Shown here piece by piece: positions 8,588 to 49,332 of a DNA stretch of 64,000 bases. This stretch comes from a virus (lineage: Duplodnaviria; Caudoviricetes). The position numbers were made by a program, and so were the translations under genes. Every line of letters starts with the position of its first letter. The stretch's first letter is position 1. Under the pieces are notes generated by a model that saw only the letters and a program-made list of their open reading frames with translations, was not told the DNA's origin and made no database searches. The stretch spans positions 8,617 through 72,616 of IMG/VR virus record IMGVR_UViG_3300033417_000005. One strand, written 5' to 3'.

Positions 8588-9718
8588 ATGAATGGAAAAT
8601 CCAAGATGGACGGTCGTGAATTTCTTACCGCTCGCAAGTGGCTGAAGGATTATGGATATCTTCCTAACGTCTCCTACGCAAGCCTTGATGCGTTAGACCG
8701 TAAAAGCGTGGAGCTGCGTCAAGGAGCGGAGATGGCGCAGAAGTTCTATGGGACAAAATTCATTGGGGAGCCTGACGCAGTAATTGGTCCTAGAACCTTG
8801 TCAGTGATGGCTGAACCGAGATGCGGATTCCCGGACACGAATTACGATAAGGAGCTATTGCCCAATGCGGCTGGGAGCGGGAGTTGGCCTGCTGCTTGCC
8901 ACGAGACTGGAATCAGAGTCTCCATTGACACGAGAAATGCTCCTAGTTGGATGGACGTTGACGCGATATTTGAAATTAGTAAGAGAGAGTACGCCAAGGT
9001 CGGTTGTCTTTTGGTGCGGGTTCCTTATGGGGAATCGGCGCACATTCGGCAAAGTTTCCGTTCCCTTTCCGGTTCTACGATTGGTCTTGCTGAGTTCAAC
9101 AATCAAAGCTGTAGCGACAGCGTGTTCAACTATAGGGACCCTAGTTACAATGGAGGAGCTGAGCGCAACGTCAACCTAGATCTTCACGAGCTAGGGCACA
9201 ACAACAACTTGGAGCATCGTAGTCAAGGGGGGATCATGCATCCCTCCATTACTTCTTCTCCCAACATGTTTGTTGATTTCGGTCCCAACATGAACATCAT
9301 CTATCAGGACCCGAGCTATCAAGACCTGAAGAAACGATATGGAGGACTGCCTATTCCGACAATTCCAATTCCACCAGTACCACCCGTTCCACCTACACCC
9401 ATTCCTTTACCACCTGAACCACCGAGGCCTCCTATGCCACCTATTGATTGGAGAGAAATCCTAGCATTTGTTTTGGAAATGATCAGCTTATGCCGAGCAC
9501 AAGGCATGAAAGAGCAAAGGATTCGTGAGAACATTCGCAATCCTGGACCCGTGCAAAAGTTCCGGCTGGAAAACCGTGTGCGGACCGCCAATTCAATACG
9601 GATCCGGGAATGGCGTCGAGTCGCCGACGAAGTGATGGCTCCTTACTACGAATCTGCCAAGGAACTGACAGACGACGATCTGGACCGTATGTTTGCAGCC
9701 GCCGCGGAAGATGAATAG
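8588..9718 (+). CDS. Matrixin (M10/MMP-like) zinc metallopeptidase with PG-binding-like prodomain and cysteine switch
   Basis: WLKDYGYL...RTLSVMAEPRCGFPD (PRCGxPD switch), HELGHNNNLEH zinc motif, IMHP Met-turn. Confidence 0.85.
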   Translation: MNGKSKMDGREFLTARKWLKDYGYLPNVSYASLDALDRKSVELRQGAEMAQKFYGTKFIGEPDAVIGPRTLSVMAEPRCGFPDTNYDKELLPNAAGSGSWPAACHETGIRVSIDTRNAPSWMDVDAIFEISKREYAKVGCLLVRVPYGESAHIRQSFRSLSGSTIGLAEFNNQSCSDSVFNYRDPSYNGGAERNVNLDLHELGHNNNLEHRSQGGIMHPSITSSPNMFVDFGPNMNIIYQDPSYQDLKKRYGGLPIPTIPIPPVPPVPPTPIPLPPEPPRPPMPPIDWREILAFVLEMISLCRAQGMKEQRIRENIRNPGPVQKFRLENRVRTANSIRIREWRRVADEVMAPYYESAKELTDDDLDRMFAAAAEDE

Positions 9719-20739: not shown

Positions 20740-20885
20740 GTTTTCCGCTTACGAAAAGGTGAGCGGCGGATTGAAACACGCTTATTTGCGGAAAGAATTG
20801 CTGCGCTTTGACCACACGGGGTCAATGGTTTGGATCGTGCGCCCTCTGCTTTGCCGTGCGATCTGATTTTGCGGCCCCGTGTGGT
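20740..20885 (+). CRISPR. Solitary CRISPR cassette 1: repeat (20740-20777), 36-nt spacer (20778-20813), long hairpin (20811-20885)
   Basis: Repeat GTTTTCCGCTTACGAAAAGGTGAGCGGCGGATTGAAAC with an 8-bp stem and ATTGAAAC end. Spacer matches the minus strand of 20624-20659 at 32/36. Confidence 0.8.
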
Positions 20886-24237: not shown

Positions 24238-24368
24238 TTTCCGCTCGCCAATCAGCGGGCGGCGGATTGAAACAAACTACAGGCAGTGGGAAAGTTTGAA
24301 AGTCGGTTAAAACGATCCCAGCGCGGGTGGGGCGGCGTTTCCAAGCTCTCTCGCTCGCCCGTGCTGGG
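24237..24368 (+). CRISPR. Solitary CRISPR cassette 2: repeat (24237-24273), 36-nt spacer (24274-24309), hairpin (24317-24368)
   Basis: Repeat GTTTCCGCTCGCCAATCAGCGGGCGGCGGATTGAAAC (37 nt) shares its last 15 nt and its stem with repeat 1. Spacer is about 29/36 identical to 24202-24236. Confidence 0.78.
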
Positions 24369-26866: not shown

Positions 26867-27183
26867 CGCGATTTCTACGCCGTACGGCGCACTCCCAGTC
26901 TTCCGGATGAGATGGGACGGGGGATTAGGGTGATTGCCCCACCGCGCCGTACGGTTTTTTGCTGCGCCAAGGACGTTACATTGCTGCGCCAAGGTGCAAG
27001 CCTGCTTCTAAGCCCCTCAGCCGCACCGTACAGGGCCTAAACCGGCTTTGGCTGCCCCCAGCTGCCATAAACCGCCAACTAGCGCCACATGGCGGCTGAG
27101 AGGCTCTCAGGGGCTTGTAAGAGTGGGCAGTTAGGGTAAAATAGGGGGCATAGCCAGTATCCCACACATTGCGCAGGTCCACC

Positions 27184-27354
27184 ATGCCCAAGTTGCCGCC
27201 AGATAGAAACAAGCGCTCTAAGCGATGCGTCGCTTGCAGCGGTACAGGAAAAAGCAGTAAGGGTCAGGAGTGCAGGCCCTGTCAAGGAAAAGGTGTGAGG
27301 ATTGTTGTTCGATGGACGCGCGACGGTGAAGCAATAAGGAGAGAGCGGGAATGA
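27184..27354 (+). CDS. Small DnaJ-type zinc-finger protein
   Basis: CVACSGTG...CRPCQGKG (2x CxxCxGxG). Confidence 0.65.
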   Translation: MPKLPPDRNKRSKRCVACSGTGKSSKGQECRPCQGKGVRIVVRWTRDGEAIRRERE

Positions 27355-29348
27355 TGCGGTCGCTAGACACCGAGACTACGGGCGTAGACCTGTGGCATGG
27401 GGCCAAGCCGTTCTTCGTGACCTTTTGTGATGAGAAGGATCACATTACGTATTTTGAGTGGGAAGTTGATCCACATACCCGAGAGCCGCGGGTGAAGCGT
27501 AAGGACTTGACGGCAATCCAAGAGCTGATCGACGACTCGGAAACGCTCGTACTCCAAAACCCCAAGTTCGACTATCAGGCTCTGCAAACGGTGTTTGAAG
27601 GTCGGCTGCGATGGGAATGGAGCAAAGTACGCGATACGCTGCTGGCCGGTCATCTTATCAACAGTCTGGAACCCCACAACCTGACCGACATGGTTTCCAA
27701 ATACCTGGGCCTAGATATTCAACCCTACGAAAAGGATCTCCAAGCTGCTTCTGAAGAAGCGAGAAGATATGCACGCAGTCATTACCCCGAATGGAGAATC
27801 GCGAAAGCTGGCCTCGCCGAAATGCCAAGCGCCGGAGGCAAGGTGTGGAAGTTCGACACCTGGCTGCCTAAGACGCTGGCGAAATCTGAGGGGATGCTTA
27901 CAACCCATCCATATCACACGGCGCTCCGAAAATACGGAAATATCGACAGCACCTGCACTCTAGCCTTGTATAAAAGACAGCGCGCATTGTTACGAGAGAA
28001 AGGACTTTGGAAAATCTACAAGCATAGACTCAAGGTGCTTCCTATCGTAGTTCACATGGAACAGTGCGGAGTGCATCTGAGCAAGCATAGACTGCAAAAG
28101 CTGTACGAGGAATATACGCGGGAAAGTGAGAGAGCCGGAAAAACGTGCGTACGGATTGCTAAGAAGTATGGAGCTGATCTGACATTGCCTAAGAGCGGGG
28201 TGAACAACAGCCTGCGAGCCACAATCTTTGATCACCTGAAACTGAGCCCCCTGAATCTTAGCAGACGTACGGGGGAGCCGAGCCTGAACCAAACGGTGCT
28301 GGAAGAATATGGGGAACTCCTAAAGGAGGACGATCCTCGGCTAAAGTTCATCCAAGCTCTTCAAGCCAAACGCAAGCGCGATACGGCGATGGTGTATATG
28401 GAGGCTTATAAGCGATTTTGGCTTAAGGAAAGTGGAAGTTACCTACTGCATCCTAGTCTGAACCCCACGGGTACTCACACGTTGCGGTGGTCGAGCAGCC
28501 GGCCGAACGAACAGAACATCAGCAAAAAGGAGGGCTTCAACCTCCGCTATTGCTTCGGTCCCGCCCAAGGAAGAGAGTGGTGGTCCCTCGATGCGCAGAA
28601 CATAGAGCTCAGGATTCCCGCGTACGAAGCAAATGAAACCGATCTGGTATACGTATTCGATCATCCGGAGGAGGCTCCTTACTTTGGCAGCTATCATCTG
28701 GTCGTGGCTGATCTGCTGCATCCAAAACTGTTCAAAGAGTACGGCGCAGCGTTCAAAAAGAAGTTCTCCAGTACGTGGTATCAATGGCTGAAAAATGGAA
28801 ACTTTGCGGTTATCTACGGGTGTCAGCAACGGAAGGCGGATATCACGTACCACGTAGTTGGAGCGTACGAAAAGATTCGGAGAAGGTTTCCAAAGATCGC
28901 CGCGCTGGCCGACTATCAAATTCGTTATGCAAGAGAGCGCGGCTACGTGGAAACCATTCCTGACCGAAGTTTAGGGCAGCAACGGGGCTACCCGTTATAC
29001 TGCGTTCGGGGTGGTCGCACGGGGTATACGAACGATGTAAGCCCTACGTTGCCGCTTAATTACCACGTCCAAGGAACGGCCATGCAATGGATGCAGAATG
29101 GTATGATCCGATGCTACGACATCCTAAACAGGTGGAACCGTGAAGATTCAGCGGTGCAATACTTCATGATAATGCAAGTGCATGACGAGCTTGTATTCGA
29201 CTTTCCGAAAAGCACCATGGCCGAAAGCCTGAAAAGAATACAACGGATCAAGAGAGCGATGGAAAAGGGAGGAGAGGACATTGGTGTGCCCACGACGGTG
29301 GGAGTGGAATATCATCCCCATAACTGGAGTGAAGGTGAAACATGCTAG
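27351..29348 (+). CDS. polA: Family A DNA polymerase with 3'-5' exonuclease domain
   Basis: LDTETTG (ExoI), DAQNIELR (motif A), KNGNFAVIYG (motif B), QVHDELVF (motif C). Confidence 0.93.
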   Translation: MMRSLDTETTGVDLWHGAKPFFVTFCDEKDHITYFEWEVDPHTREPRVKRKDLTAIQELIDDSETLVLQNPKFDYQALQTVFEGRLRWEWSKVRDTLLAGHLINSLEPHNLTDMVSKYLGLDIQPYEKDLQAASEEARRYARSHYPEWRIAKAGLAEMPSAGGKVWKFDTWLPKTLAKSEGMLTTHPYHTALRKYGNIDSTCTLALYKRQRALLREKGLWKIYKHRLKVLPIVVHMEQCGVHLSKHRLQKLYEEYTRESERAGKTCVRIAKKYGADLTLPKSGVNNSLRATIFDHLKLSPLNLSRRTGEPSLNQTVLEEYGELLKEDDPRLKFIQALQAKRKRDTAMVYMEAYKRFWLKESGSYLLHPSLNPTGTHTLRWSSSRPNEQNISKKEGFNLRYCFGPAQGREWWSLDAQNIELRIPAYEANETDLVYVFDHPEEAPYFGSYHLVVADLLHPKLFKEYGAAFKKKFSSTWYQWLKNGNFAVIYGCQQRKADITYHVVGAYEKIRRRFPKIAALADYQIRYARERGYVETIPDRSLGQQRGYPLYCVRGGRTGYTNDVSPTLPLNYHVQGTAMQWMQNGMIRCYDILNRWNREDSAVQYFMIMQVHDELVFDFPKSTMAESLKRIQRIKRAMEKGGEDIGVPTTVGVEYHPHNWSEGETC

Positions 29349-30226
29349 CGAAGCGCTGTAACGTCCAGGATCTAAAAAGTATGTACGGGCTGAAGAATTT
29401 GGATGTCTTCTTCTATTGGATTGGTGAAAGAGAAAAGATACGCCGGGCCAAGGAAGCGGGAGAGCCTAAGCCTTGGACCGAGGATCCGATACTGCAAAAG
29501 TACAGATTCTGCAACGTCCGGAGAATGGACGACCGAGTAAGCAGGTGGCTCTTCGACCGCTGGTACGAGCCGGAATTTGATTGCTCGAATATGCTTACGG
29601 CGTGTACGATCGCTCGGCTGCTCAATCTGCCGGAGTCGTTGGAGGCTATTGGTTTTCCAAGACAGTGGAAACCGCACCGAGTAGAAAAGATACTGGAAGA
29701 GAGGAAAAAGCAGGGCTGCAAAACCTTCAACTCCGCCTACATAATCACCGGCTGCTTCGGGGGAAGTAAGATCCATCAAGTAGTCTGGTGGATTACGCAG
29801 CCTATTCACAAAGATCGCCACAAAATTGTGGATCGTACGAGCATGCGAGCTACTTGGCAAAATCTGCTGGCGTACCCCGGCATCAAGTCATTTCTAGCCG
29901 GGCAGATTGTGGCTGACCTGAGATGGGCGATCAACCACGAGTGGAAGGACCAATACACGTGGGCTCCTCTAGGACCGGGAAGCCGTAGAGGAATGAACAG
30001 GCTGCTCGAAAGACCGAAAAGTCGGGGGATGGGACAAGAAGAGTTTGATGGATACTTTGGGTCGCTGATCGAGGAAGGAAAAGACAGGGACGGGTGGGTG
30101 CTGGCTGAAACTATGGAACGGATGGAGGCGATCGACTGGCAAAACTGCTTGTGCGAATTCGACAAGTATATGAGAGCCCTGACGGGACAAGGCAAGCCGA
30201 AACAGAAATATGCGGGGGTAGAATGA
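29342..30226 (+). CDS. aGPT-Pplase clade 1-like amino acid:DNA transferase (thymidine hypermodification)
   Basis: FYWIGERE...PWTEDPILQKYRFCNVRRMDDRVS and QNCLCEFDKY. Confidence 0.85.
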   Translation: MLAKRCNVQDLKSMYGLKNLDVFFYWIGEREKIRRAKEAGEPKPWTEDPILQKYRFCNVRRMDDRVSRWLFDRWYEPEFDCSNMLTACTIARLLNLPESLEAIGFPRQWKPHRVEKILEERKKQGCKTFNSAYIITGCFGGSKIHQVVWWITQPIHKDRHKIVDRTSMRATWQNLLAYPGIKSFLAGQIVADLRWAINHEWKDQYTWAPLGPGSRRGMNRLLERPKSRGMGQEEFDGYFGSLIEEGKDRDGWVLAETMERMEAIDWQNCLCEFDKYMRALTGQGKPKQKYAGVE

Positions 30227-31224
30227 ATATCAACCTGTTCTATTTAAGCGACGCACGCTACGGGGGTCACGTCACCTTTACCGTGCATCTAATGCTCGGA
30301 CTGCGGGCTGTCGGTGCCTCGGCGTCGCTCTACAAGGTAGGTAAGAACACGGAAGACAAATGGCGTGACTTCGGTTACGGTAGATTGTATCAAAACATTT
30401 CGCTAGTGGATGCTTGCAGGCTGTGCAAAAGCAAGCGCAGCGTCACTTTGGTTGTGGCAACCAACAAGCCGTGCGCGCAGGCGATCAACGCCATGATAGA
30501 TGCGGGGGCTAGAGCGGTGATCCATGATCCTGGTGAGTTTAAGCGAGGATGGAATTGGCAGAAGGTGCAGCGGCCTATTGTAATCCGTGAGAGTATGCTC
30601 TCCTGGTTTGAGGACGCCGTGTTCCTGCTCCACCCTTACGATCCGTTGTTCGGTAAGATATTCGTAGCTCCAACGGAGGAATGGGCGGCGGTAAGCACGA
30701 GTAGAATAGATTTTGACAAGCACACGGAAATCTTGCTTGACGCGAATAGACTGCTTGATAAGAAAGACAGGATACAAATTTATGGGTTTGAAAATAGAAT
30801 CTATACACGGTTTAACGTCGTACCTAAGTACCCGGAATGGCGGCAGTCCGTATGCAAGTATCCGAGAAAACTGCGTTACGCCGTGAGGCAGCTCTGTCAC
30901 AAGGCTGCGTTCAGTTGCGACATGTCCATTATCAAAGGCGACGGTGGAGGCACGCAATATACGTTTTTGGAGGCGATAGACGCCGGGTGCGCCCTCGTTC
31001 TGAATCGCGGGTGGATTATCGACAATCACGTAATGAACCCCGACAGCAACTGTTTTGCGGTGTCCGATGGGGAACAGCTTGCCGGGCTCATCAAAGAGTA
31101 CACACGAGGCTCGAAGATAATGCGCCGTAGGGTTGAAAGAAGAAGGATCAAGGCCCGCCGATTGCTGGACAAGCACCTTGCCCGGAAAGTAGCCGTTTCT
31201 TGGAAGGAGGAGTTACATGACTGA
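30223..31224 (+). CDS. GT-B-fold glycosyltransferase-like protein of DNA-modification loci
   Basis: YGGHVTF at the N-terminus; DMSIIKGDGGGTQYTFLEAIDAG. Confidence 0.65.
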   Translation: MNINLFYLSDARYGGHVTFTVHLMLGLRAVGASASLYKVGKNTEDKWRDFGYGRLYQNISLVDACRLCKSKRSVTLVVATNKPCAQAINAMIDAGARAVIHDPGEFKRGWNWQKVQRPIVIRESMLSWFEDAVFLLHPYDPLFGKIFVAPTEEWAAVSTSRIDFDKHTEILLDANRLLDKKDRIQIYGFENRIYTRFNVVPKYPEWRQSVCKYPRKLRYAVRQLCHKAAFSCDMSIIKGDGGGTQYTFLEAIDAGCALVLNRGWIIDNHVMNPDSNCFAVSDGEQLAGLIKEYTRGSKIMRRRVERRRIKARRLLDKHLARKVAVSWKEELHD

Positions 31225-32008
31225 CGTCTACATCGCCCCGTTTTTTCGTAGATCGGGTGGACACGCCGTGCTTCATTGGCTCGGGGCGGGCTACAGCAAC
31301 TACACGCTGGTAAGCGAGATTCCAGTAACTTATCGTCCATTGAAGAGATTCAGCAATGTAGAATGGAATGTCGACGCAGTGTTCTTTGCCGTGGAGGATA
31401 AGTTTATCGCTCCTAGAAGCAAGGAGTTGACTAGTCTTTTGGACACTTACCCGATAAAGAACCCAACAAGAGTGTTTCACGTGTCCATCGTTCGGGATGC
31501 GTACAACGCCTGCGCAAGCAGAATGCGCATTAGCGACAATTGGCTATGGCGGAGAAGAAGCCGGGGGTTGCCCGACGCTCCCGACAGCTACTATCCCGTC
31601 CATGGCTACAACTCGCGGCTTCCCGCTCTGTGGCGGTCTATAGTGGAGCAGAGCATGGAGGAACTGTCTAGTCATGCCTTGATGGTAAACTTCAACAAAT
31701 GGGCTAGAAGCGACGAGTATCGTTACAATTTATGCAAATGCTTTGGGCTGAAACATCTAAAATGTGAGAAAGGAAAGGAGCGGGTTACGAGGGAAGGAGG
31801 AGGAAGCAGCTTTACGGGTACGACTAAAATGCCCGAGCATTGGGAGCTCAAAAATAGATGGCTGGGATACGCCAAGGACCCGAGGCTTTTAGAGGTCGTG
31901 CTGAATAAAGAAATCAGAGAGATAAATAAGCAAGTTTTCGGCTGGTCCCTTCGACGAAACCGCGATGGAGACATTGAGAGTGAGGAGTGGCCCTGGGCAG
32001 CCTCTTAG
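31217..32008 (+). CDS. Sulfotransferase/P-loop kinase-like protein
   Basis: RRSGGHAVLHW (PSB-like loop) and IVRDAYNACAS (R-x7-S). Confidence 0.55.
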   Translation: MTDVYIAPFFRRSGGHAVLHWLGAGYSNYTLVSEIPVTYRPLKRFSNVEWNVDAVFFAVEDKFIAPRSKELTSLLDTYPIKNPTRVFHVSIVRDAYNACASRMRISDNWLWRRRSRGLPDAPDSYYPVHGYNSRLPALWRSIVEQSMEELSSHALMVNFNKWARSDEYRYNLCKCFGLKHLKCEKGKERVTREGGGSSFTGTTKMPEHWELKNRWLGYAKDPRLLEVVLNKEIREINKQVFGWSLRRNRDGDIESEEWPWAAS

Positions 32009-32032
32009 GACACAAATGAAAGGGTCTAAAAG

Positions 32033-32236
32033 ATGATTCCAAGCCTTGATGAATTGATATTACGCCTACGCCGGGACGTGCCGCACCGGGACTCTATGTA
32101 TGAACTTGCCCGACAAGTAGCGGGCTGTGAAAGGGGAACGGATGGGCTGCCCGTAAACACCGTGCGCTTTGCGTTCCAGTGTTTGGTTGTGCTGCTTAAA
32201 CACGTTGAAAACGACCCTAAGAATCCGGAAAACTGA
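32033..32236 (+). CDS. Hypothetical protein
   Basis: In operon, 67 aa. Confidence 0.45.
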   Translation: MIPSLDELILRLRRDVPHRDSMYELARQVAGCERGTDGLPVNTVRFAFQCLVVLLKHVENDPKNPEN

Positions 32237-32237
32237 C

Positions 32238-32996
32238 ATGAAATCTAAGATTCTAATCGTGACCCGAGGCAGGCCGTGGCATAAGCAATCTACAGCTCAG
32301 GCGCTCATGGAGGCTGACATCCCTTTCACCTTTATCCGCACTTTGGGAGACGAAGTATCCTTGTTCTGCGCAAGGCGTAAGACGTCCGCCATCTGGGTCG
32401 ACGCTTCGAACATCGCGGTGAAACGACAGAAGGTGCTGCAACTCTACAAACGGTTCATCATGCTCGACGACGACCTGTCGTTCCAAAGGGTAGTTGAAGG
32501 CAAGGCGGTAAAGGCGGCCCCCGATGAGCTGGAGGCTTTATTCGCTCTCATGGATCAGTGCTTAAATACTCATGCTCTAGTCGGCCTGGAAAACCGTTTC
32601 ATGATCCAGAACAAGGAGCAGCCGTTCAACAGCAAGTGGGGGAAGATGATCCACGCAGTAGGCGTAAATAAGAAGTTCTTAAAAGGCAACGAGCGGTACA
32701 GCCGCGTACCCGGCCATGAAGACATTGACTTCTTTTTGCAAGTGGCGATGAATAAGTGCCCCGTGATCATGATCTCCAAATATACCCATAGCGACGCCGG
32801 GAACTTTTATCGGCCGGGAGGATGCAGTACGTGGAGAAACAAAGAGAATGACCACGAGCAAGCCCGCAAGCTCCAATCTCTGTGGCCGAGTATTATTACT
32901 CTCTATCCGGGAAAAGACGGAATTACTAGAGTCAAAGGAAACTGGAAAAAGGTGAGGGAACATAATGCCTCCGCTGCACAAAAAACCAAAATCTGA
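32238..32996 (+). CDS. TET/JBP-associated-type (GREB1/JGT-like) GT-A DNA glycosyltransferase
   Basis: IVTRGR, MLDDDL, EDIDFFLQ, GGCSTWR...LQSLWP. Confidence 0.75.
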   Translation: MKSKILIVTRGRPWHKQSTAQALMEADIPFTFIRTLGDEVSLFCARRKTSAIWVDASNIAVKRQKVLQLYKRFIMLDDDLSFQRVVEGKAVKAAPDELEALFALMDQCLNTHALVGLENRFMIQNKEQPFNSKWGKMIHAVGVNKKFLKGNERYSRVPGHEDIDFFLQVAMNKCPVIMISKYTHSDAGNFYRPGGCSTWRNKENDHEQARKLQSLWPSIITLYPGKDGITRVKGNWKKVREHNASAAQKTKI

Positions 32997-33942
32997 CTAC
33001 GTTCAGCATCCTCCGTTTTGTATTCAAATTGAGCTGACTGAAGGATGCAATTTACGGTGTACTTTCTGCGGCCTCAACGGAATCCGTGGCAAGGAAAACA
33101 ACTTCAAGTTCCTTTCGGTCAGTCTGGCTTCAAGAATTGCCAAGCTGATCCGTAAAGATCGGTGGACCTCCCGGATCGAGTTTGCCATGCACGGAGAGCC
33201 AAGTGTAAATCCAGACTTGGTGGAGATTCTTAGGGTCTTTCGCCGTAGACTTCCCAACCATCATCTGATGATGACCAGCAACGGGGCGGGGTTTCTAAGA
33301 GAGACCACGAAGACGGTCGATGAATGCCTACGCTATTTGAACGTGCTTGCCTTGGACGATTACGAGGGAGTGAGTATTGTGACCAAGGTGATGCGCAGCT
33401 ACAACGGCAAGCATAAGCCAGTGTACTATCCTTCCAGCAAGCATGGCAACCCGCATCGTAGGAGGAAACTGAGCGAGCATGACCTCGTGGTAGTGCAAGA
33501 CATAGAACAGGCTACGCAAGGCACTCATAGCAGCTTGAACAATCATTGTGGCTGTGGCTCACCGAAGAACGACAGTGCCATGGGCAAGCGGTGCGCTAAA
33601 CCGTTCCGGGAGATGTCGATACGGTGGGACGGCTTCGTGGCTCTGTGCTGCAACGACTGGAGGGGGTACTACAAGTGCGGTCACGTAGAAGACAAGACCT
33701 TGGAACAGATATGGCAAAGCGCGGAGTTCATGGCCGCCCGGAGAAGACTGATACTTGGGAAGAGGGACTTCGGGCCTTGCGAAGGCTGCGACGCCCTGAG
33801 CTACCGACCGGGGCTGCTGCCGGATCAGAGGGGAAAGGTGCATCTGCCTGAGCCTAGCAGGGCCGACGAAGAGACCATTGCCAAGGCGCTGTTTGGAGCT
33901 TCCTACACGCTGCCCGTACTACGAGAGTGGGAGAGCGCATAA
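32965..33942 (+). CDS. Radical SAM/SPASM protein
   Basis: CNLRCTFC; CAKPF...IRWDG...LCCNDW...IWQS...CEGC. Confidence 0.88.
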   Translation: MPPLHKKPKSDYVQHPPFCIQIELTEGCNLRCTFCGLNGIRGKENNFKFLSVSLASRIAKLIRKDRWTSRIEFAMHGEPSVNPDLVEILRVFRRRLPNHHLMMTSNGAGFLRETTKTVDECLRYLNVLALDDYEGVSIVTKVMRSYNGKHKPVYYPSSKHGNPHRRRKLSEHDLVVVQDIEQATQGTHSSLNNHCGCGSPKNDSAMGKRCAKPFREMSIRWDGFVALCCNDWRGYYKCGHVEDKTLEQIWQSAEFMAARRRLILGKRDFGPCEGCDALSYRPGLLPDQRGKVHLPEPSRADEETIAKALFGASYTLPVLREWESA

Positions 33943-33968
33943 AAATAGCCCGGCAACTCCACCGGGCT
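33942..33968 (-). terminator. Intrinsic terminator between convergent genes
   Basis: AGCCCGG-N8-CCGGGCT, followed by a T-run on the minus strand. Confidence 0.7.
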
Positions 33969-33991
33969 GTAAAACCTTGTGACGTTCCTTA

Positions 33992-34402
33992 CTACTTGGT
34001 CTTAACGCTCCTTCCTTCCTTAGTCAGAAACAACACCATGCCTCCCTCTTCCATGCTTTCCCGAGCTATCAAGCCTCGGGCTCGTAGGGAAAGACAGGGT
34101 GCTTTTGAGGCGTTGGCCCATACGTCCTCACGGGGGACGCCTCGCGCCGCGCTGAAGGCTTTCTGTTCCTTGAGGTAGGCGAGCACTTCCAGCTCACCAC
34201 TTGTCAGCTCAGCATCTTCGAGCTCGTCGGCTAAAGCGGCCACCCGATCTACACGGGGGAGAGGCTCTTTCACCGGCTGGGGCTTCTTCTTCTTTCCCTT
34301 TTTCTCCGGTACACTTTCACTTACGGGGGCGTTACTGCTCGAAGACTCGCGCTTTCTCCGTACGCGCTTTTTGTCCGTACCTGTTTCAGATCCAGTCGCC
34401 AT
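33992..34402 (-). CDS. Basic winged-helix-like DNA-binding protein, paralog of 48190-48636
   Basis: GAGGAG SD. EVLAYLKEQKAFSAARGVPREDVW...CLSLRARGL. Confidence 0.65.
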   Translation of the reverse strand: MATGSETGTDKKRVRRKRESSSSNAPVSESVPEKKGKKKKPQPVKEPLPRVDRVAALADELEDAELTSGELEVLAYLKEQKAFSAARGVPREDVWANASKAPCLSLRARGLIARESMEEGGMVLFLTKEGRSVKTK

Positions 34403-34464
34403 GATGTGGCTCCTCAAAAAAGAATAGTGGGGTGTTTAGGCTTTAGCAAGCCTTACTAATGGCC

Positions 34465-34493
34465 AGCCTACCAAGGAAGTTGTCACTTTGCAA
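34465..34493 (-). promoter_or_regulatory. Sigma70-type early promoter
   Basis: TTGCAA-N17-TAGGCT, same family as 43116 and 45005. Confidence 0.65.
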
Positions 34494-34541
34494 GGGGTAA
34501 AATGCCAAAAAAGAAAAACTTTTTAGCGAAGGAGATTTCCC

Positions 34542-35090
34542 GTGATTTCAAGGATCTTTGTGGACCTGGACGACGTACTGGTGGACTTTCGGGGAGGCGC
34601 AATTCGGCTGCATGGGTGGGATCCGGCGGATTGCCGACCCGAAATGTGGGATATGTGTGAGTCGAGAGGAGTAACACAAGAAGATTTTTGGAAACCTATT
34701 GATGAAGCCGGAGAAGACTTTTGGTACTTGCTGCAACCCCATCCTTGGATACACGAAGTCATAGAACTGGTGGAAAGGCACGTGGGTGAGGAGTGGTACA
34801 TAGTCACCTCGCCGAGCAGGCACGTTAGCTCTTACGTTGGCAAGCTAAAATGGGTCAAGGCGTGGTTTGGCGCACAGTTTGACAGGATGATTCCAATGAC
34901 GCATAAACACCTGCTGGCGGATTATGACAGAGTGCTAATCGACGACAGCCCGGATAACATTCTGGAATTTAATAATGCCGGAGGAATTGGAATTTTGTTT
35001 CCAAACGTCGGCAACAGTCTGCATGAACAGGCGCACAGTCCGATGGACCACGTTGAGGAAATCTTAACGCGGATAATGCAACAGGAGTAA
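34542..35090 (+). CDS. HAD-family 5'(3')-deoxyribonucleotidase (NT5C-like)
   Basis: FVDLDDVLVDF, IVTSP, VLIDDSPDN. Confidence 0.85.
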   Translation: MISRIFVDLDDVLVDFRGGAIRLHGWDPADCRPEMWDMCESRGVTQEDFWKPIDEAGEDFWYLLQPHPWIHEVIELVERHVGEEWYIVTSPSRHVSSYVGKLKWVKAWFGAQFDRMIPMTHKHLLADYDRVLIDDSPDNILEFNNAGGIGILFPNVGNSLHEQAHSPMDHVEEILTRIMQQE

Positions 35091-35096
35091 ATTAAA

Positions 35097-36284
35097 ATGG
35101 AACTCGTTTTTAAAGACGTAAACGATGCGTTTGCCGTGCTGGTTGAAATGGTGTTGAAAAACCAGATAGGAACCACGAAAACCACGAGCCGAGCGGGCGA
35201 CGTTATTGCCATCAACGAGCCGATGCTGATCACGTATGAAAATCCTTGCCATCGGGTGCTGTTCAACCCCTTGCGCGACTGTAACTGTTTCTTCCAGTTG
35301 TACGAAGCCCTTTGGATGCTGGCCGGTCGTAACGACGTATCACCTCTGGCGTACTACAACCGGAGAATGACTGAGTTTAGTGACGACGGCAAAACCCTCA
35401 ACGGTGCGTATGGATATCGATGGAGAACTAAGCCGAGAATGCCTTGGACCGACCTGTACGGTGCTAGTCCTGCAAAATTCGCGGAAGTTCATTGCGGTCC
35501 GGTTCGGCGAGTTGACCAGCTAGATATCTTAGTCGACCACCTGAAGAAAACTCCCAACAGCCGACGTGCGGTTCTCCAAATGTGGGACGTGGAGGACGAC
35601 CTTTTGAAAATAGATGAATCGAAGGACGTGAGTTGTAATCTCTCAGTCATGTTCAGCCTGAGGCAAGGAAGGTGTGAAGTCTGTGACGATTACCGAGGCC
35701 CGGATCAGGACTGTCCCGCATGCAACAGCGAGTCCCCCACGTTCTTGGACATGACGGTTACGAACCGCAGCAACGACATGATTTGGGGAATGCTAGGTGC
35801 TAACGTGGTACACTTTAGTTTCCTTCTTGAATACATAGCGGCGCGGCTGGGGGCGAGCGTTGGCCGGTATCACCAGTTCACCAACAACCTTCACGTCTAT
35901 ACGAGTAACTGGCTGCCTCGTAAGTGGCTGAGCGTGTACGGTCAGTATCGCACGATGTACAGTCCGCCCAATACGCGGTACGAAGACCTTGCTTCGCTCG
36001 TGCCCCTCGTTGTAGACCCGGAACGGTTTGATCGTGAACTGCCTGAGTTTGTGGAAAGGCATAGTAAGGACGCGACCGGTGTTGCTTACAAACTCAACAG
36101 TGAACCGTTCTTGCAAAACGTGGCACAGCCTCTGTGTACCGCGTTCCATTACCACAAGCGTCGTCAGTATGCGGATGCCATGAGTGTAGTTCAGGAAATC
36201 CTAGCGGACGATTGGCGGATCGTTGCTACGGATTGGATCCGGAAACGGCGCTCGAAGTATGAGAGCAAAGGTAATAATGCCTAG
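35097..36284 (+). CDS. Thymidylate synthase homolog, probable dUMP hydroxymethylase
   Basis: SRRAVLQMW, catalytic SCN, RSNDMIWG...N (Asn implies dUMP specificity), NNLHVY. Context of aGPT-Pplase and GT genes. Confidence 0.8.
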   Translation: MELVFKDVNDAFAVLVEMVLKNQIGTTKTTSRAGDVIAINEPMLITYENPCHRVLFNPLRDCNCFFQLYEALWMLAGRNDVSPLAYYNRRMTEFSDDGKTLNGAYGYRWRTKPRMPWTDLYGASPAKFAEVHCGPVRRVDQLDILVDHLKKTPNSRRAVLQMWDVEDDLLKIDESKDVSCNLSVMFSLRQGRCEVCDDYRGPDQDCPACNSESPTFLDMTVTNRSNDMIWGMLGANVVHFSFLLEYIAARLGASVGRYHQFTNNLHVYTSNWLPRKWLSVYGQYRTMYSPPNTRYEDLASLVPLVVDPERFDRELPEFVERHSKDATGVAYKLNSEPFLQNVAQPLCTAFHYHKRRQYADAMSVVQEILADDWRIVATDWIRKRRSKYESKGNNA

Positions 36285-38256: not shown

Positions 38257-38278
38257 ACGTCAGTGATCTTTGCAATCA

Positions 38279-38610
38279 GGTTTAAGGGCCGTAGGTGCGT
38301 GCTAGCGCTAGGGGGCCTCAGTGGCCCTTAGCCGTACACACCGGGCTAGGGCAGTGTTACCTGCCCCCACAAGCAAGCGCAGCGCTGTAACGCCCCTAGC
38401 GTAGGGCAGGGCGTAAATGGGGCCGCCTCAGTGGCCCTCAGCCGTACGCGCCTAGGGGCAGGCGTGGTATTACTGCCCCTTAGCAAACGTGCGTTAGGGC
38501 GCAAATGAGGGGCCGTGAGGGGCAAGCACCTTGCGCAGCAATTGTTACGCCCTTTGGCGCATAAAAACACCCCCACGGGCACTACTACATAAGGGGGTAT
38601 ATTAACGGTG
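38279..38610. other. GA/TC-depleted intergenic island between convergent gene blocks
   Basis: Only 5 GA/TC in about 330 bp, all in CCTCA/TGAGG context. Confidence 0.85.
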
Positions 38611-43144: not shown

Positions 43145-43185
43145 GGGGTGAAATGCAGTTTTTTGCATGCGATAAATGGGGGTAA

Positions 43186-45439: not shown

Positions 45440-45709
45440 ATGGGTCGTATTAAATGGCACGGTTCGTGTGATGCCAAGCGTCAAAGTCCCCTTGCTAAAC
45501 ACATTGGATCGCAGCTGCTTAGGGCTCGAGAAAAACATCAATTGACAATTCGGGAAACTGCGAAGAGAGTGGGCATATCCAACGCATTTGTCTGCCAAAT
45601 CGAAAATGGCCAAAGCGTCCCAGGCGCCGAGATTCTTTGGAAGCTGTCGAGAACGTTTGACGTTCCGGTAACTTATTGGTTTCGTGGATTCACGGACGAT
45701 AATGGCTAA
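45440..45709 (+). CDS. XRE-family HTH transcriptional regulator
   Basis: LLRAREKHQLTIRETAKRVGISNAFVCQIENG...P. Confidence 0.85.
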   Translation: MGRIKWHGSCDAKRQSPLAKHIGSQLLRAREKHQLTIRETAKRVGISNAFVCQIENGQSVPGAEILWKLSRTFDVPVTYWFRGFTDDNG

Positions 45710-46949: not shown

Positions 46950-47200
46950 AGGATAAAGAAAAGAATATTCTTTGTAAAGTATAGAGAATCTAATCTTAAG
47001 CATAAGTTCTTATTCTCTCTAGAAAGAGAAAGAAAAGAAGAGATACGATTTTATTCAGTAAAAAGAAGACTTCTTCTCTTAGAAAGATCAAAGAATCTTT
47101 GTAAAAAGTAAGACTTCTTCTTTTAGAAAGAAAAGAAATTTGAGTTCTTCTTTTGAAAAGAAAAAAGTTTCCGTCTTGGGTGTGCGCGTACGCGCGAGGA
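46950..47200. repeat. AT-rich AAGA/TCTT low-complexity tract ending in GTGCGCGTACGCGCG
   Basis: AAGACTTCTTC-T(C/T)TTAGAAAG repeated. Non-coding. Confidence 0.75.
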
Positions 47201-47217
47201 ATCCGCTTTTGATTTCG

Positions 47218-47460
47218 TTTCGGTCCATGAACTTTGATTTCCGTTCGTTCCTAGATTCTTATCTTCGATTCAGTTTACCTGGATCCTAGATTCTTATCTT
47301 CGATTCAGTTTATCTGGATCCATCTTTTCGGTTCTTATGTTTTGATTTCCATTCGTTCCAAAGTTTCGGTCCAAAGTTTTTGATTTCGTTTCGTTCTTAG
47401 CCTTGGAATTTGGATCATCCATCTTTTCGGTTCTTGAGTTTTGATTTCCATTCGTTCGCG
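47218..47460 (+). repeat. Nested direct repeats (two 37-bp copies, two 38-bp copies) with TTTCGGTCCA
   Basis: CCTAGATTCTTATCTTCGATTCAGTTTA(C/T)CTGGATCC x2; CATCTTTTCGGTTCTT...TTTTGATTTCCATTCGTTC x2. Confidence 0.8.
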
Positions 47461-47520
47461 TTCCAAGATGTGGAAAGAATTTGAACTTCCACTTTTGCGA
47501 AACGTGCCCGCAACGATTTG

Positions 47521-47565
47521 GATTGGATTGGATTGGATTGGATTGGATTGGATTGGATTGGATTG
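47521..47565 (+). repeat. (GATTG)9 microsatellite
   Basis: Seen directly. Confidence 0.95.
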
Positions 47566-47930
47566 GAAATGGAAGATGAATGAAAACCCTTGGCCGGAAA
47601 ACGATTTGTGAATGCAAGCGCAGCGCTGTAACGTCCAAGAAACGGGGTACTTCTAAATACCTCAAAAGTGGCAAATAATCTACCAGTTTGTTAAGCTAGG
47701 CAAACCTAGGCTGAGGGGCCCAAATTTGCGACCTCACGCACTTTGCCGGGTTTTGGCATAAAACTAGCCACTTGCCATTTTAGGACGTCAGATCCTAAAT
47801 TTGGGTCCCTGAGGACAAATTAAAAAGCAAACCGCATTGCCAATTGCCAAACCTGAATTTTCAAAACGCTCTGTACAGCGTACCCTTCGCCTCGTAGCGA
47901 CATAGCCCCATTGCCCCGTATGTCGGCTCG

Positions 47931-47975
47931 TTTCGGTCCAATTCTTTTCGGTCCAATTCTTTTCGGTCCAATTCT
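47931..47975 (+). repeat. 3 x 15-bp tandem TTTCGGTCCAATTCT
   Basis: Seen directly. Confidence 0.9.
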
Positions 47976-48139
47976 TCATACTTGGCTTTCTCATCCACGC
48001 CCCTGCACATACTTCCATTTTTCAGCTACACTCTTTATACCACTTCTAGGGGGTTAGGTACCCCCACCTCAGGGGGGCCACTACTAGGGGGTATGCCACC
48101 CCCACTAGGGTAGTGTACGTTTGTACAAAGCAGGTGCAT

Positions 48140-48166
48140 AAAAAACCCGGCCCGCCTTGGCCGGGT
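48140..48166 (-). terminator. Intrinsic terminator of the 48190-48636 gene
   Basis: ACCCGGCC-N6-GGCCGGGT followed by T6 on the minus strand. Confidence 0.75.
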
Positions 48167-48189
48167 AGTGTACCAACGTACACTAGGGG

Positions 48190-48636
48190 TTAGCTGATTG
48201 TTGGCCCCCAATTAGGCGCCGCGCTTTTGGTGGCAGCACCAGCACCAGCACCAGCACCAGCACCAGCCGTTGCCTTAGGTGCTTTAGCCTTACGCGCGGC
48301 CTTGGCTTTGGGGGCTTTGCCTGTTAGGTACAACCCCATTTGCGGCGTACGGCCAACCACGCCCATGGCCCGCAGCGTTAGGCAAGCTACTTGGCTGGTG
48401 CCCGGTGCCAGCCATACTTGGGTGCGTGTAACCGCCTTGGCCGCGTTAACTGCCCCCTGCGCCTTTAAGTACGCCAACACGGCGGTTTGTGCCGCCAGTA
48501 GCTTGGCACTAGGCTTGGCCGTTAGCGTGCCTACCAAATCCAGCTGCTTGGCCGTAATGCCATTACCCGCCACCGTAGCCGCCGCCTTGCCTACAACCGC
48601 CGTACCCGTACCCTTACTTTGCTTTGCGTTAGCCAT
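48190..48636 (-). CDS. Basic Ala/Lys-rich winged-helix-like protein with almost no acidic residues; paralog of 33992-34402
   Basis: 148 aa with 1 Asp and 0 Glu. AGGGGT SD, its own promoter and terminator, homology to 33992-34402. Confidence 0.75.
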   Translation of the reverse strand: MANAKQSKGTGTAVVGKAAATVAGNGITAKQLDLVGTLTAKPSAKLLAAQTAVLAYLKAQGAVNAAKAVTRTQVWLAPGTSQVACLTLRAMGVVGRTPQMGLYLTGKAPKAKAARKAKAPKATAGAGAGAGAGAATKSAAPNWGPTIS

Positions 48637-48760
48637 TTTGCTAACCCCTATAGCAACGTGTGGTGCATGGCCAACCATAGCCAGCCCACAACAACCACGG
48701 CCAGCCCGCCGTGGCCAGCCCCACACACGGTTGGCCAACACAGCCAACCCACACACATAA

Positions 48761-48788
48761 AGTATAGCCTACCCCGCGGCTAGTGCAA
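48761..48788 (-). promoter_or_regulatory. Early promoter variant
   Basis: TTGCAC-N16-TATACT. Shares TAGGCTATA and TAGCCG with the 43116 and 45005 promoters. Confidence 0.55.
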
Positions 48789-49332
48789 GGGGTACGCACA
48801 AAATTTTACAAAAAAGATTTTGGAAGTTTGGCATAAGGAATGCGTACCATAGTGTACGGCTATACAGTGTACACAATTACATCTAGGTATACAGCTGTGC
48901 ACTACTGTACGGATGTACTTGGATTGGATTTGGCGGTTCGCGGCTGGTGCGGAGAATCGTGGTCTTGCCCCTACCCTACGTCGTGCATTTTTGGATCAAA
49001 ATCTGCCCCTTAGCCACGTCGTGTATTCATGAGTCTTCGAATTGTAACGTCCTAGCGAAGCTATGTTACGTCCTTGGATCAAGATCAGCCCATTTCACTC
49101 ACTCTTTCGTTCACTGAGGGAAAAATTTGCTCCTATTTCGCGAGTCCTTGAAAATCTAGCGAAGCTAGCTCGAGCGAAATGAGGGACCGGTTGTGAGTTG
49201 TTTTTCACTAAAAAATCGCGATCTCGAAAATTTTCTCTCGTACCCGAGGGCTTTTTATAGTGTACGAATGTATACTGTTGTTGAACCGAAGATTCTGTGT
49301 AAAATGGGGGTATTTACGCTCTGGAGCAAGGT

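Follow-up and report, generated by a model that had tools for sequence, protein, structure and literature searches.

A transcription unit nearly devoid of GA/TC dinucleotides in a phage with a thymidine-hypermodification gene cluster

In the thymidine-hypermodifying phages M6, ViI, PhiW-14, and SH-Ab 15599, only a subset of T is modified, picked by its 3′ neighbor (TG and/or TC). Restriction mapping of the first three indicated that TG and TC are the main sites of hypermodified T, and the kinase was proposed to read the base on the 3′ side (PMC6449724). In the Acinetobacter phage SH-Ab 15599, dapT fills TG almost fully and TC less (PMC13458397), and among phage T-dioxygenases one strongly prefers NTC and another NTG (PMC13229309). 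Bulky or phosphorylated 5-hydroxymethyluracil (5hmU) shuts off Escherichia coli RNA polymerase in vitro; plain 5hmU stimulates it 3.5-fold (PMC6457204). Given this published enzymology and these in vitro transcription data, it is plausible both that a writer is specific for TC and that its adduct is costly for transcription. Here we analyze a 64,000-nt window (positions 8,617 to 72,616 of the 72,616-bp IMG/VR record IMGVR_UViG_3300033417_000005; Duplodnaviria, Caudoviricetes) containing a 769-bp island, at 48 kb, that encloses a small gene and nearly lacks the dinucleotide pair GA/TC. The phage has a thymidylate-synthase homolog, an HMUDK_hel protein, transferases, a radical SAM protein, and a polymerase of its own, comparable to those of M6, ViI, PhiW-14, and SH-Ab 15599 (PMC5889632, PMC8989533, PMC6449724, PMC13458397). 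It differs from phi_M6 and PhiW-14, which are without an island, and its chemistry is probably different, there being glycosyltransferases in its cluster. In the full-text literature searched, we found no description of context-free islands or recoded twin genes in modified phages.

The island contains one GA (48196) and two TC (48069 and 48539). Local base composition would give 92.8 GA/TC (Poisson log10 P = −35), and the genome-wide frequency, 0.131, would give ~100 (binomial log10 P = −41). The near-absence of the pair from 48047 to 48815 that a sequence-only reading of the window had reported is therefore real (3 versus 92.8), and an artifact of chance or composition is rejected both by this probability and by resampling of synonymous codons (z = −7.5). 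The three longest GA/TC-free gaps of the whole record (343, 277, and 127 bp) all lie in the island, the next being 110 bp, and the edges are sharp, the nearest outside GA/TC being at 48045 (left) and 48816 (right). Only one reverse-complement pair is depleted, CA/TG, AG/CT, and AC/GT being near expectation. Counted on both strands, 1.0% of island T is followed by C, compared with 27.4% genome-wide, and all four NTC trinucleotides are purged; TT, TA, and AA stand 1.66-fold, 1.65-fold, and 1.16-fold over expectation. The depletion is local and acts at the dinucleotide level: genome-wide, the observed/expected ratio of GA/TC is 1.04, and neither GATC (z = −1.0) nor TCGA (z = −1.2) is avoided. In ~3.6 Mb of other phage DNA, we found no comparable depletion of any dinucleotide class, except in some phages with the thymidine-hypermodification marker gene, the gene for the HMUDK_hel protein.

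Coding and noncoding DNA of the island are affected alike. The ~320 bp of noncoding island DNA contain one TC; the untranscribed promoter has no GA/TC where ~7 are expected, and the DNA beyond the terminator has 1 where ~12 are expected. For the open reading frame (ORF), we resampled synonymous codons for the actual protein according to genome codon usage. This gave an expectation of 34.1 ± 4.3 GA/TC (5000 samples, minimum 20), and the ORF contains 2, 7.5 standard deviations below. Because promoter, leader, and post-terminator DNA comply, and because codon choice falls far below what the protein allows, the constraint acts on DNA, as the sequence-only reading had proposed. The two words form a reverse-complement pair, the pattern that recognition of duplex DNA would give. 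Between the upstream phage-type motifs and the island the DNA is ordinary (66 GA/TC versus 63 expected).

Judged from its signals, the purged zone is one transcription unit on the minus strand, extending from the upstream edge of a putative promoter to hairpins at the 3′ end (Table 1). The promoter, TTGCAC-16-TATACT, is a match made by eye that a strict consensus scan did not list. The same promoter class, CCCCTTGCA...TAGGCT, also occurs upstream of a paralog of the island gene (34497) and of a third minus-strand unit at 43148. The leader folds with a minimum free energy of −59.8 kcal/mol (z = −2.4 versus shuffles). An 11-bp inverted repeat, TAGGGGTTAGC, brackets the ORF and has no further copies in the genome; its two ends could pair in the mRNA, hiding the ribosome-binding site. 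The same 11-mer is shared with one other contig (L104), a single match that is within chance. Scans of the island region with Rfam and for tRNAs returned no known RNAs.

Table 1. Coordinates of the island, its transcription unit, and related features. Positions are those of the window unless a genome is named.
Feature	Position	Strand	Remarks
GA/TC-free island	48047..48815	.	769 bp; GC 59% versus 52% for the genome
Putative promoter region	48761..48815	-	T-rich upstream element; assigned by sequence resemblance; no GA/TC
CCCCTTGCA motif	48792-48784	-	Includes -35 TTGCAC at 48788-48783
-10 TATACT	48766-48761	-	16-nt spacer from TTGCAC
5′ leader	48637..48757	-	G/T-rich, ~120 nt; predicted to fold as long hairpin
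Shine–Dalgarno AGGGG	48649-48645	-	8 nt before ATG at 48636
Island ORF, 148 aa	48190..48636	-	Predicted basic disordered tails and winged-helix core
Predicted intrinsic terminator	48137..48166	-	8-bp GC-rich stem (48166-48145), then TTTTTT; hairpin scan
17-nt inverted repeat	48111-48127 and 48169-48185		Brackets terminator
28-bp repeat, two copies	48040..48105	.	Island left end, beyond terminator; each with GGGGGT...ACCCCC palindrome (repeat family D3)
11-bp perfect inverted repeat TAGGGGTTAGC	48184..48194; partner 48640-48650		Overlaps stop codon; partner overlaps Shine–Dalgarno
Thymidine-hypermodification cluster	29342..36284	+	Directly after family-A DNA polymerase (27351-29348)
HMUDK_hel-domain protein	29342-30226		Pfam E = 4e-44
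Thymidylate-synthase homolog	35097-36284		Pfam Thymidylat_synt E = 1.7e-20; may be hydroxymethylase or methylase
Paralog, 136 aa	33992..34402	-	Inside hypermodification cluster; same promoter class
G026 island	G026:34110-35280 (L276:14110-15280)		1.17 kb; 8 GA/TC versus 145 expected
G019 island	G019:59150-59595 (L303:19150-19595)		445 bp; without TC/GA and TG/CA
G019 ordinary twin	G019:61287-61466		1.8 kb away; 6 Asp, 4 Glu; normal dinucleotides
AT-rich, repeat-dense noncoding block	46950..47980	.	Adjoins island
Weaker GA/TC-poor noncoding patch	38257..38610	.	9 GA/TC versus 42.6 expected
Minor GC-rich noncoding GA/TC-poor patches	26976-27212; genome 6669-6907 (outside window)		11 versus 28.6; 9 versus 30

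The consequences of the constraint extend into the protein. The sequence-only reading had pointed to a Shine–Dalgarno of the AGGGG type, to serines encoded by AGY, and to a protein with one Asp and no Glu, and each of these holds, the serine codons being AGY in five of five. The Lys/Ala/Gly/Pro-rich tails are predicted to be disordered. AlphaFold (AF2) models a core at residues 48 to 105 (predicted local distance difference test score ~89) with helices at 48–60, 71–76, and 82–91 and strands at 94–96 and 101–104. The top Foldseek rows are all winged helices (TubR, 4asn, is best; others are of MarR/IclR type) at E values of 0.06 or worse, and the product is predicted to be a small basic winged-helix DNA-binding protein. 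Neither Pfam nor PHROG gave a match for it. The modeled core has the three-helix and β-wing topology of the TubR/MarR-type winged helices; the long Lys/Ala/Pro-rich tails and the complete lack of Glu are unusual among them.

The paralog, which lies among the modification genes, matches the island protein with 38% identity over the core (E = 6e-14) and is ordinary, with 5 Asp and 16 Glu and with 62 GA/TC where 59.6 are expected. The family is tiny, with only ~9 members at E ≤ 0.001 when 1.84 billion representative proteins were searched by profile. The nearest homologs, found among ~5.8 billion proteins, are the metagenomic sequences P0002, which has no Asp or Glu, and P0004, which has one Asp. 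With the island protein they form an acid-free clade of 58 to 61% mutual identity in a nine-sequence alignment, the remaining six members of which are ordinary and acidic. Positions that are acidic in all six ordinary members (in 'R-[DE/K]-x-VW' and in the 'D-x-E-D-G' wing) are Thr, Gln, or Ser in the acid-free clade or are deleted, so that relative to its homologs the island gene is recoded in both codons and amino acids. Because the constraint has been kept through ~40% protein divergence, the comparison argues for selection rather than a recent accident, and the constraint appears to be old and heritable. The acid-free status of P0002 and P0004 is known from protein sequence alone; pattern and profile scans of viral contigs and a scan of metagenome contigs did not find the DNA that encodes them.

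The cluster that houses the paralog consists, in order, of genes for the HMUDK_hel protein, two proteins without a family match, a TAGT-like glycosyltransferase (Pfam E = 1e-6; PHROG 842 E = 6e-21), a radical SAM/SPASM protein, an NT5C nucleotidase, and the thymidylate-synthase homolog, and is followed by a gene for an HNH endonuclease. The HMUDK_hel gene thus has putative downstream tailoring enzymes, the glycosyltransferase and the radical SAM/SPASM protein, beside it. By its gene content, the cluster bears the signature of thymidine hypermodification derived from 5-hydroxymethyldeoxyuridine (5-hmdU) (PMC5889632, PMC8989533), which accords with the earlier suggestion, made without database searches, that the phage carries a 5hmU-derived hypermodification. 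For the HMUDK_hel protein, tblastn relatives in M6-like, ViI-like, and PhiW-14 phages bear the annotation aGPT-Pplase1 or 5-hmdU kinase domain. The best annotated relatives (M6-like, ViI-like, and cyanophage records) are named aGPT-Pplase1. The protein may be a pyrophosphorylase-type transferase rather than a kinase, and the genome showed no clear P-loop kinase domain. Genes for Tet_JBP and ParB were not found in it either, and 7-deazaguanine at GA, introduced by DpdA, was rejected as a candidate modification, the genome having no TGT-family gene. T followed by C makes up 27% of genome T, inside the published range of 14 to 50% of T modified.

We compared 16 whole genomes carrying an HMUDK_hel gene (0.98 Mb) with 98 random viral fragments (0.97 Mb), defining a desert as a 300-bp window with a GA/TC log10 P below −7.5. 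Deserts were present in 7 of the 16 genomes and in none of the 98 controls, the minimum of which was −6.7 (Fisher p = 3e-7, a value that overstates independence, the island genomes being mutually related). Only extreme islands carry weight in this comparison, because moderately GA/TC-poor patches also occur in random viral DNA. The idea that GA/TC-poor patches typify the neighborhood of the marker gene was rejected, since the GA/TC minima within 10 kb of HMUDK_hel on 77 viral contigs are no stronger than those of the 98 random fragments. The 16 genomes belong to these 77 contigs, and the extreme islands came to light only when genomes were scanned whole. In the same two sets (HMUDK_hel loci L026–L105; random fragments from L138 onward), the median observed/expected ratio is 1.01 versus 1.15 for CA/TG and 0.92 versus 0.97 for GA/TC. 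HMUDK_hel phages may thus avoid TG mildly throughout their genomes, but these loci are related and centered on the same gene.

Two of the other islands show what is shared. That of genome G026 includes a 207-aa ORF with no Asp and 2 Glu, unrelated in sequence to the protein at 48 kb, and a tandem-repeat tract. That of genome G019 avoids a second context, with C following 1.3% and G following 1.0% of its T while CT and GT are normal, and it includes a 74-aa ORF with 2 Asp and no Glu that has an ordinary twin nearby. Gene pairs homologous to this one occur in G016, G018, G020, G021, and G023, with depletion that is partial in some; G018 and G021 resemble G019 in being free of both TC and TG. The common denominator of the islands is a T that is not followed by C, or not by C or G. 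The three genomes free of both contexts fall in one clade of the HMUDK_hel tree, as is consistent with a context set by the enzyme, although relatedness confounds the comparison.

These observations lead us to regard the island, on balance, as a hard-wired exemption from the phage's own TC-context thymidine hypermodification, the TC context being taken from the avoidance itself. Because the islands avoid exactly the published contexts of T modification, and do so in phages with the marker gene of the pathway, such an exemption is the most economical reading. In this scheme, 5-hmdU would be made before replication and then decorated on the polymer, only where T is followed by C, and a stretch without TC on either strand would stay free of bulky major-groove adducts. 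Host RNA polymerase could then recognize and transcribe the unit regardless of how far the remaining genome is modified. The cost would be the elimination of GAN codons (Asp and Glu) and TCN serines, with conserved acidic positions replaced or deleted and with synonymous codons and codon junctions chosen against GA/TC, and an ordinary acidic twin would be kept in modifiable DNA within the modification cluster. We infer that TC is modified, that the modification hinders transcription or protein binding, and at what time the unit is needed. As to purpose, and with less certainty, the match to a transcription unit, the host-type promoter, and the pairing of a recoded copy with an ordinary twin in two unrelated protein families suggest a gene that has to stay legible at any level of genome modification; it could be either a starter gene on fully modified incoming DNA or a late supply gene.

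A more specific version of the exemption, which we hold only tentatively and think rather unlikely as it stands, makes the island a bootstrap gene. The injected genome would be decorated at every TC and poorly read, and the island would be ordinary DNA. Its winged-helix product would license transcription or replication, possibly by binding a promoter-like motif that is dispersed over the genome in ~27 copies, and the twin would take over once there is undecorated progeny DNA.

Several observations weigh against an exemption from hypermodification. Besides the relatedness of the island genomes, moderately poor patches (0.2–0.35 of expectation) are found in random viral DNA as well. No dinucleotide-free island of any class exists in phi_M6 and PhiW-14, for which TG/TC hypermodification is documented, or in PhiJL001 and Epa43. 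G001 and G002, the genomes closest by portal, nearly complete and HMUDK_hel-positive, have neither an island nor a member of the island-protein family. Because phi_M6, PhiW-14, G001, and G002 do without one, an island is not a general requirement of the pathway. Within the phage itself, TC content is normal in other genes that are presumably early and in the paralog, which shares the promoter class, so there must be some way to transcribe modified DNA. Avoidance of 6-bp palindromes is weaker for those containing TC/GA only as a nonsignificant trend (mean z −0.69 versus −1.25), and the TC context itself is drawn from avoidance together with literature precedent for TC and TG.

Other processes could select against the same dinucleotide. 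A nuclease or defense enzyme might attack or mark unmodified TC/GA, in which case the unit must survive without modification; a very short-specificity nuclease, a DarT-like T ADP-ribosyltransferase, or a modification-dependent enzyme are candidates that are live but weaker, and the sequence-only reading had itself offered a host enzyme recognizing TC/GA as an alternative. Enzymes with T/C contexts of 2 to 4 nt do exist (TNTC for DarT, TCA for T4 EndoIV), and the signal is strand-symmetric and at the level of DNA. However, a 72-kb genome gains no protection against nuclease attack or blocked replication from the shielding of 769 bp, or ~1%; the islands go with a thymidine-modification marker gene and not with random phages; the avoidance of T followed by C or G in G019 points to a T-centered writer of the TG/TC type; and no such host enzyme was identified here. 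We therefore consider this explanation improbable. Slightly less probable still, to us, is a platform for protein binding or packaging that needs a smooth major groove over several hundred bp and merely happens to contain the gene, the binder being terminase at a pac site, a replication initiator, or the winged-helix protein itself. The island does lie between an iteron-rich, AT-rich block and terS in a 2.5-kb noncoding stretch, it has palindromes and CTAGGGG words (6 of the 10 genome copies fall in two GA/TC-poor regions), and the best structural match of its protein is the centromere-binding winged helix TubR. Yet its edges fit the promoter and 3′ hairpins of a transcription unit and not terS, which is 517 bp off, so that the packaging site upstream of terS offered in the sequence-only reading fits poorly; the adjoining iteron-like repeats are the most TC-rich DNA of the genome, and the islands of G026 and G019 likewise enclose whole small ORFs.

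Depletion of TC/GA is the classical footprint of TC-specific cytosine deaminases, and an APOBEC- or DddA-like enzyme could leave such a footprint by C-to-T editing or select for immunity to it. The 1.66-fold excess of TT in the island fits this, but the island is richer in GC than the genome (59% versus 52%), the excess of AA (1.16-fold) is small beside that of TA (1.65-fold), the ORF is intact, with 58 to 61% identity across three lineages, and the avoidance of TG in G019 is left unexplained. Editing should raise TT (from TC) and AA (from GA) together and lower GC; this combination was not found, and composition largely refutes a deaminase, which we consider very improbable. We think it just as improbable that the island is a desert of protospacer-adjacent motifs (PAMs), in which a host type I CRISPR (clustered regularly interspaced short palindromic repeats) system with a TTC-like PAM could not target or sample it. 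Two CRISPR-like repeat ends stand alone in the genome (GCGGCGGATTGAAAC; 20763 and 24259); the repeat ending ATTGAAAC is common among type I arrays, and spacer acquisition favors DNA near free ends. All four NTC are purged, however, and not TTC alone, a local desert is no shield against Cas3-type degradation, G019 avoids TG too, and no host or cas genes are known. Least probable of all is a constraint on RNA, by which a transcript without GA/UC would escape a ribonuclease. The island coincides with a transcription unit, but a reverse-complement pair of words bespeaks duplex DNA. The promoter, which is untranscribed, and the stretch past the terminator both comply, and the DNA from the upstream phage-type motifs to the island (66 versus 63) does not.

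An exemption from hypermodification has partial counterparts elsewhere. Phage genomes avoid restriction palindromes, and the leading regions of T7 and T5 are poor in sites. There, as here, selection acts on DNA against a short word read by an enzyme, and codon choice bends to it. The island differs in that the word is a nonpalindromic step of 2 nt, avoided locally and with sharp edges at one unit, at the loss of two amino acids, and in that what it evades is probably a writer encoded by the phage itself. Restriction-site avoidance is also genome-wide and concerns a specific, usually palindromic site of 4 to 8 bp, whereas GA/TC, GATC, and TCGA are not avoided across this genome. Of the 14 most avoided 6-bp palindromes (GGCGCC, AAGCTT, CAGCTG, CTGCAG, GGTACC, ACCGGT, and others), 13 are without TC/GA, as shielding of TC-containing sites would predict, but the difference is not significant.

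Morons, reportedly described by Hendrix and colleagues, are independent promoter–gene–terminator units inserted between phage genes. The island unit likewise has its own putative promoter and terminator, stands between unrelated genes, and is absent from the nearest relatives, a patchy distribution; its orientation opposite to both neighbors and its deviant GC (59% versus 52%) make it moron-like, with the promoter assigned by resemblance only. We know of no moron that is purged of a dinucleotide or that is a recoded twin of a resident gene. A 10-bp direct repeat, TTTGGCATAA (47752 and 48827), was considered as a target-site duplication and is within chance expectation. By analogy only, the island also recalls vertebrate CpG islands, both being local, sequence-encoded exceptions to a genome-wide dinucleotide base modification that are found at promoters or transcription units. 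They work the other way round, however: a CpG island retains its dinucleotide and keeps the enzyme out, whereas here the dinucleotide is removed.

The phage has no close relative in the collections searched. Comparison with 50,697 phage records gave no match at the DNA level, tblastn found nothing resembling the island protein, and relatives by portal and terL, at 42 to 54% identity, have neither the island nor the protein family. Around the island, the otherwise noncoding stretch of 2.5 kb is flanked on the left by small plus-strand genes (a helix-turn-helix protein at 45440–45709 and three ORFs to 46772), followed by the AT-rich repeat block, and on the right by terS (49333), terL (50242), and portal (52050). 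The tandem repeats of the block are of 22–23 bp (three copies), 35 bp (two), and 13 bp (two), with TTGGA ten times and the 15-bp TTTCGGTCCAATTCT three times. This iteron-like block may be an origin or packaging region. Its part from 46950 to 47580 has the highest composition-corrected GA/TC density in the genome (119 versus 70.9 expected), and the GA/TC-rich flank claimed earlier is real in this part; the rest of the flank, from 47581 to 48046, is not enriched (44 versus 58).

Weaker GA/TC-poor patches also occur in the genome. The one at 38 kb consists of two ~110-bp tandem units, each beside a copy of the dispersed promoter-like motif; its fold is no better than that of shuffles (z = −1.6), and a structured RNA is unsupported. 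CTAGGGG is enriched at the 28-bp repeats, and 6 of its 10 genome copies fall in the main island and this patch. In all the minor patches, including that at 38257–38610, the leftover TC/GA is mostly in CCTCAG/CTGAGG, and their ORFs look spurious. The two exact copies of GCGGCGGATTGAAAC (20763–20777 and 24259–24273) are intergenic, with no cas genes, and correspond to a typical 3′ end of a CRISPR repeat.

Should the island be an exemption from hypermodification, the context of modification would be readable from the genome alone, as TC from the 48-kb island and from G026 and as TC and TG from G019, G021, and G018, and this would provide a cheap predictor for hundreds of uncultured phages. It would also mean that hypermodification costs gene expression or DNA–protein recognition, and enough to strip two amino acids from a protein. 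The phage would then exempt one locus, by its very sequence, from an epigenetic mark that covers its genome, and would keep one gene in both a modifiable and a nonmodifiable copy, which would be a new principle of regulation; island and twin would make a natural template pair for host RNA polymerase on hypermodified DNA. If, further, the island is a bootstrap gene, recoded-twin islands in unrelated families, as in G019, would mark a general design principle of thymine-hypermodifying phages.

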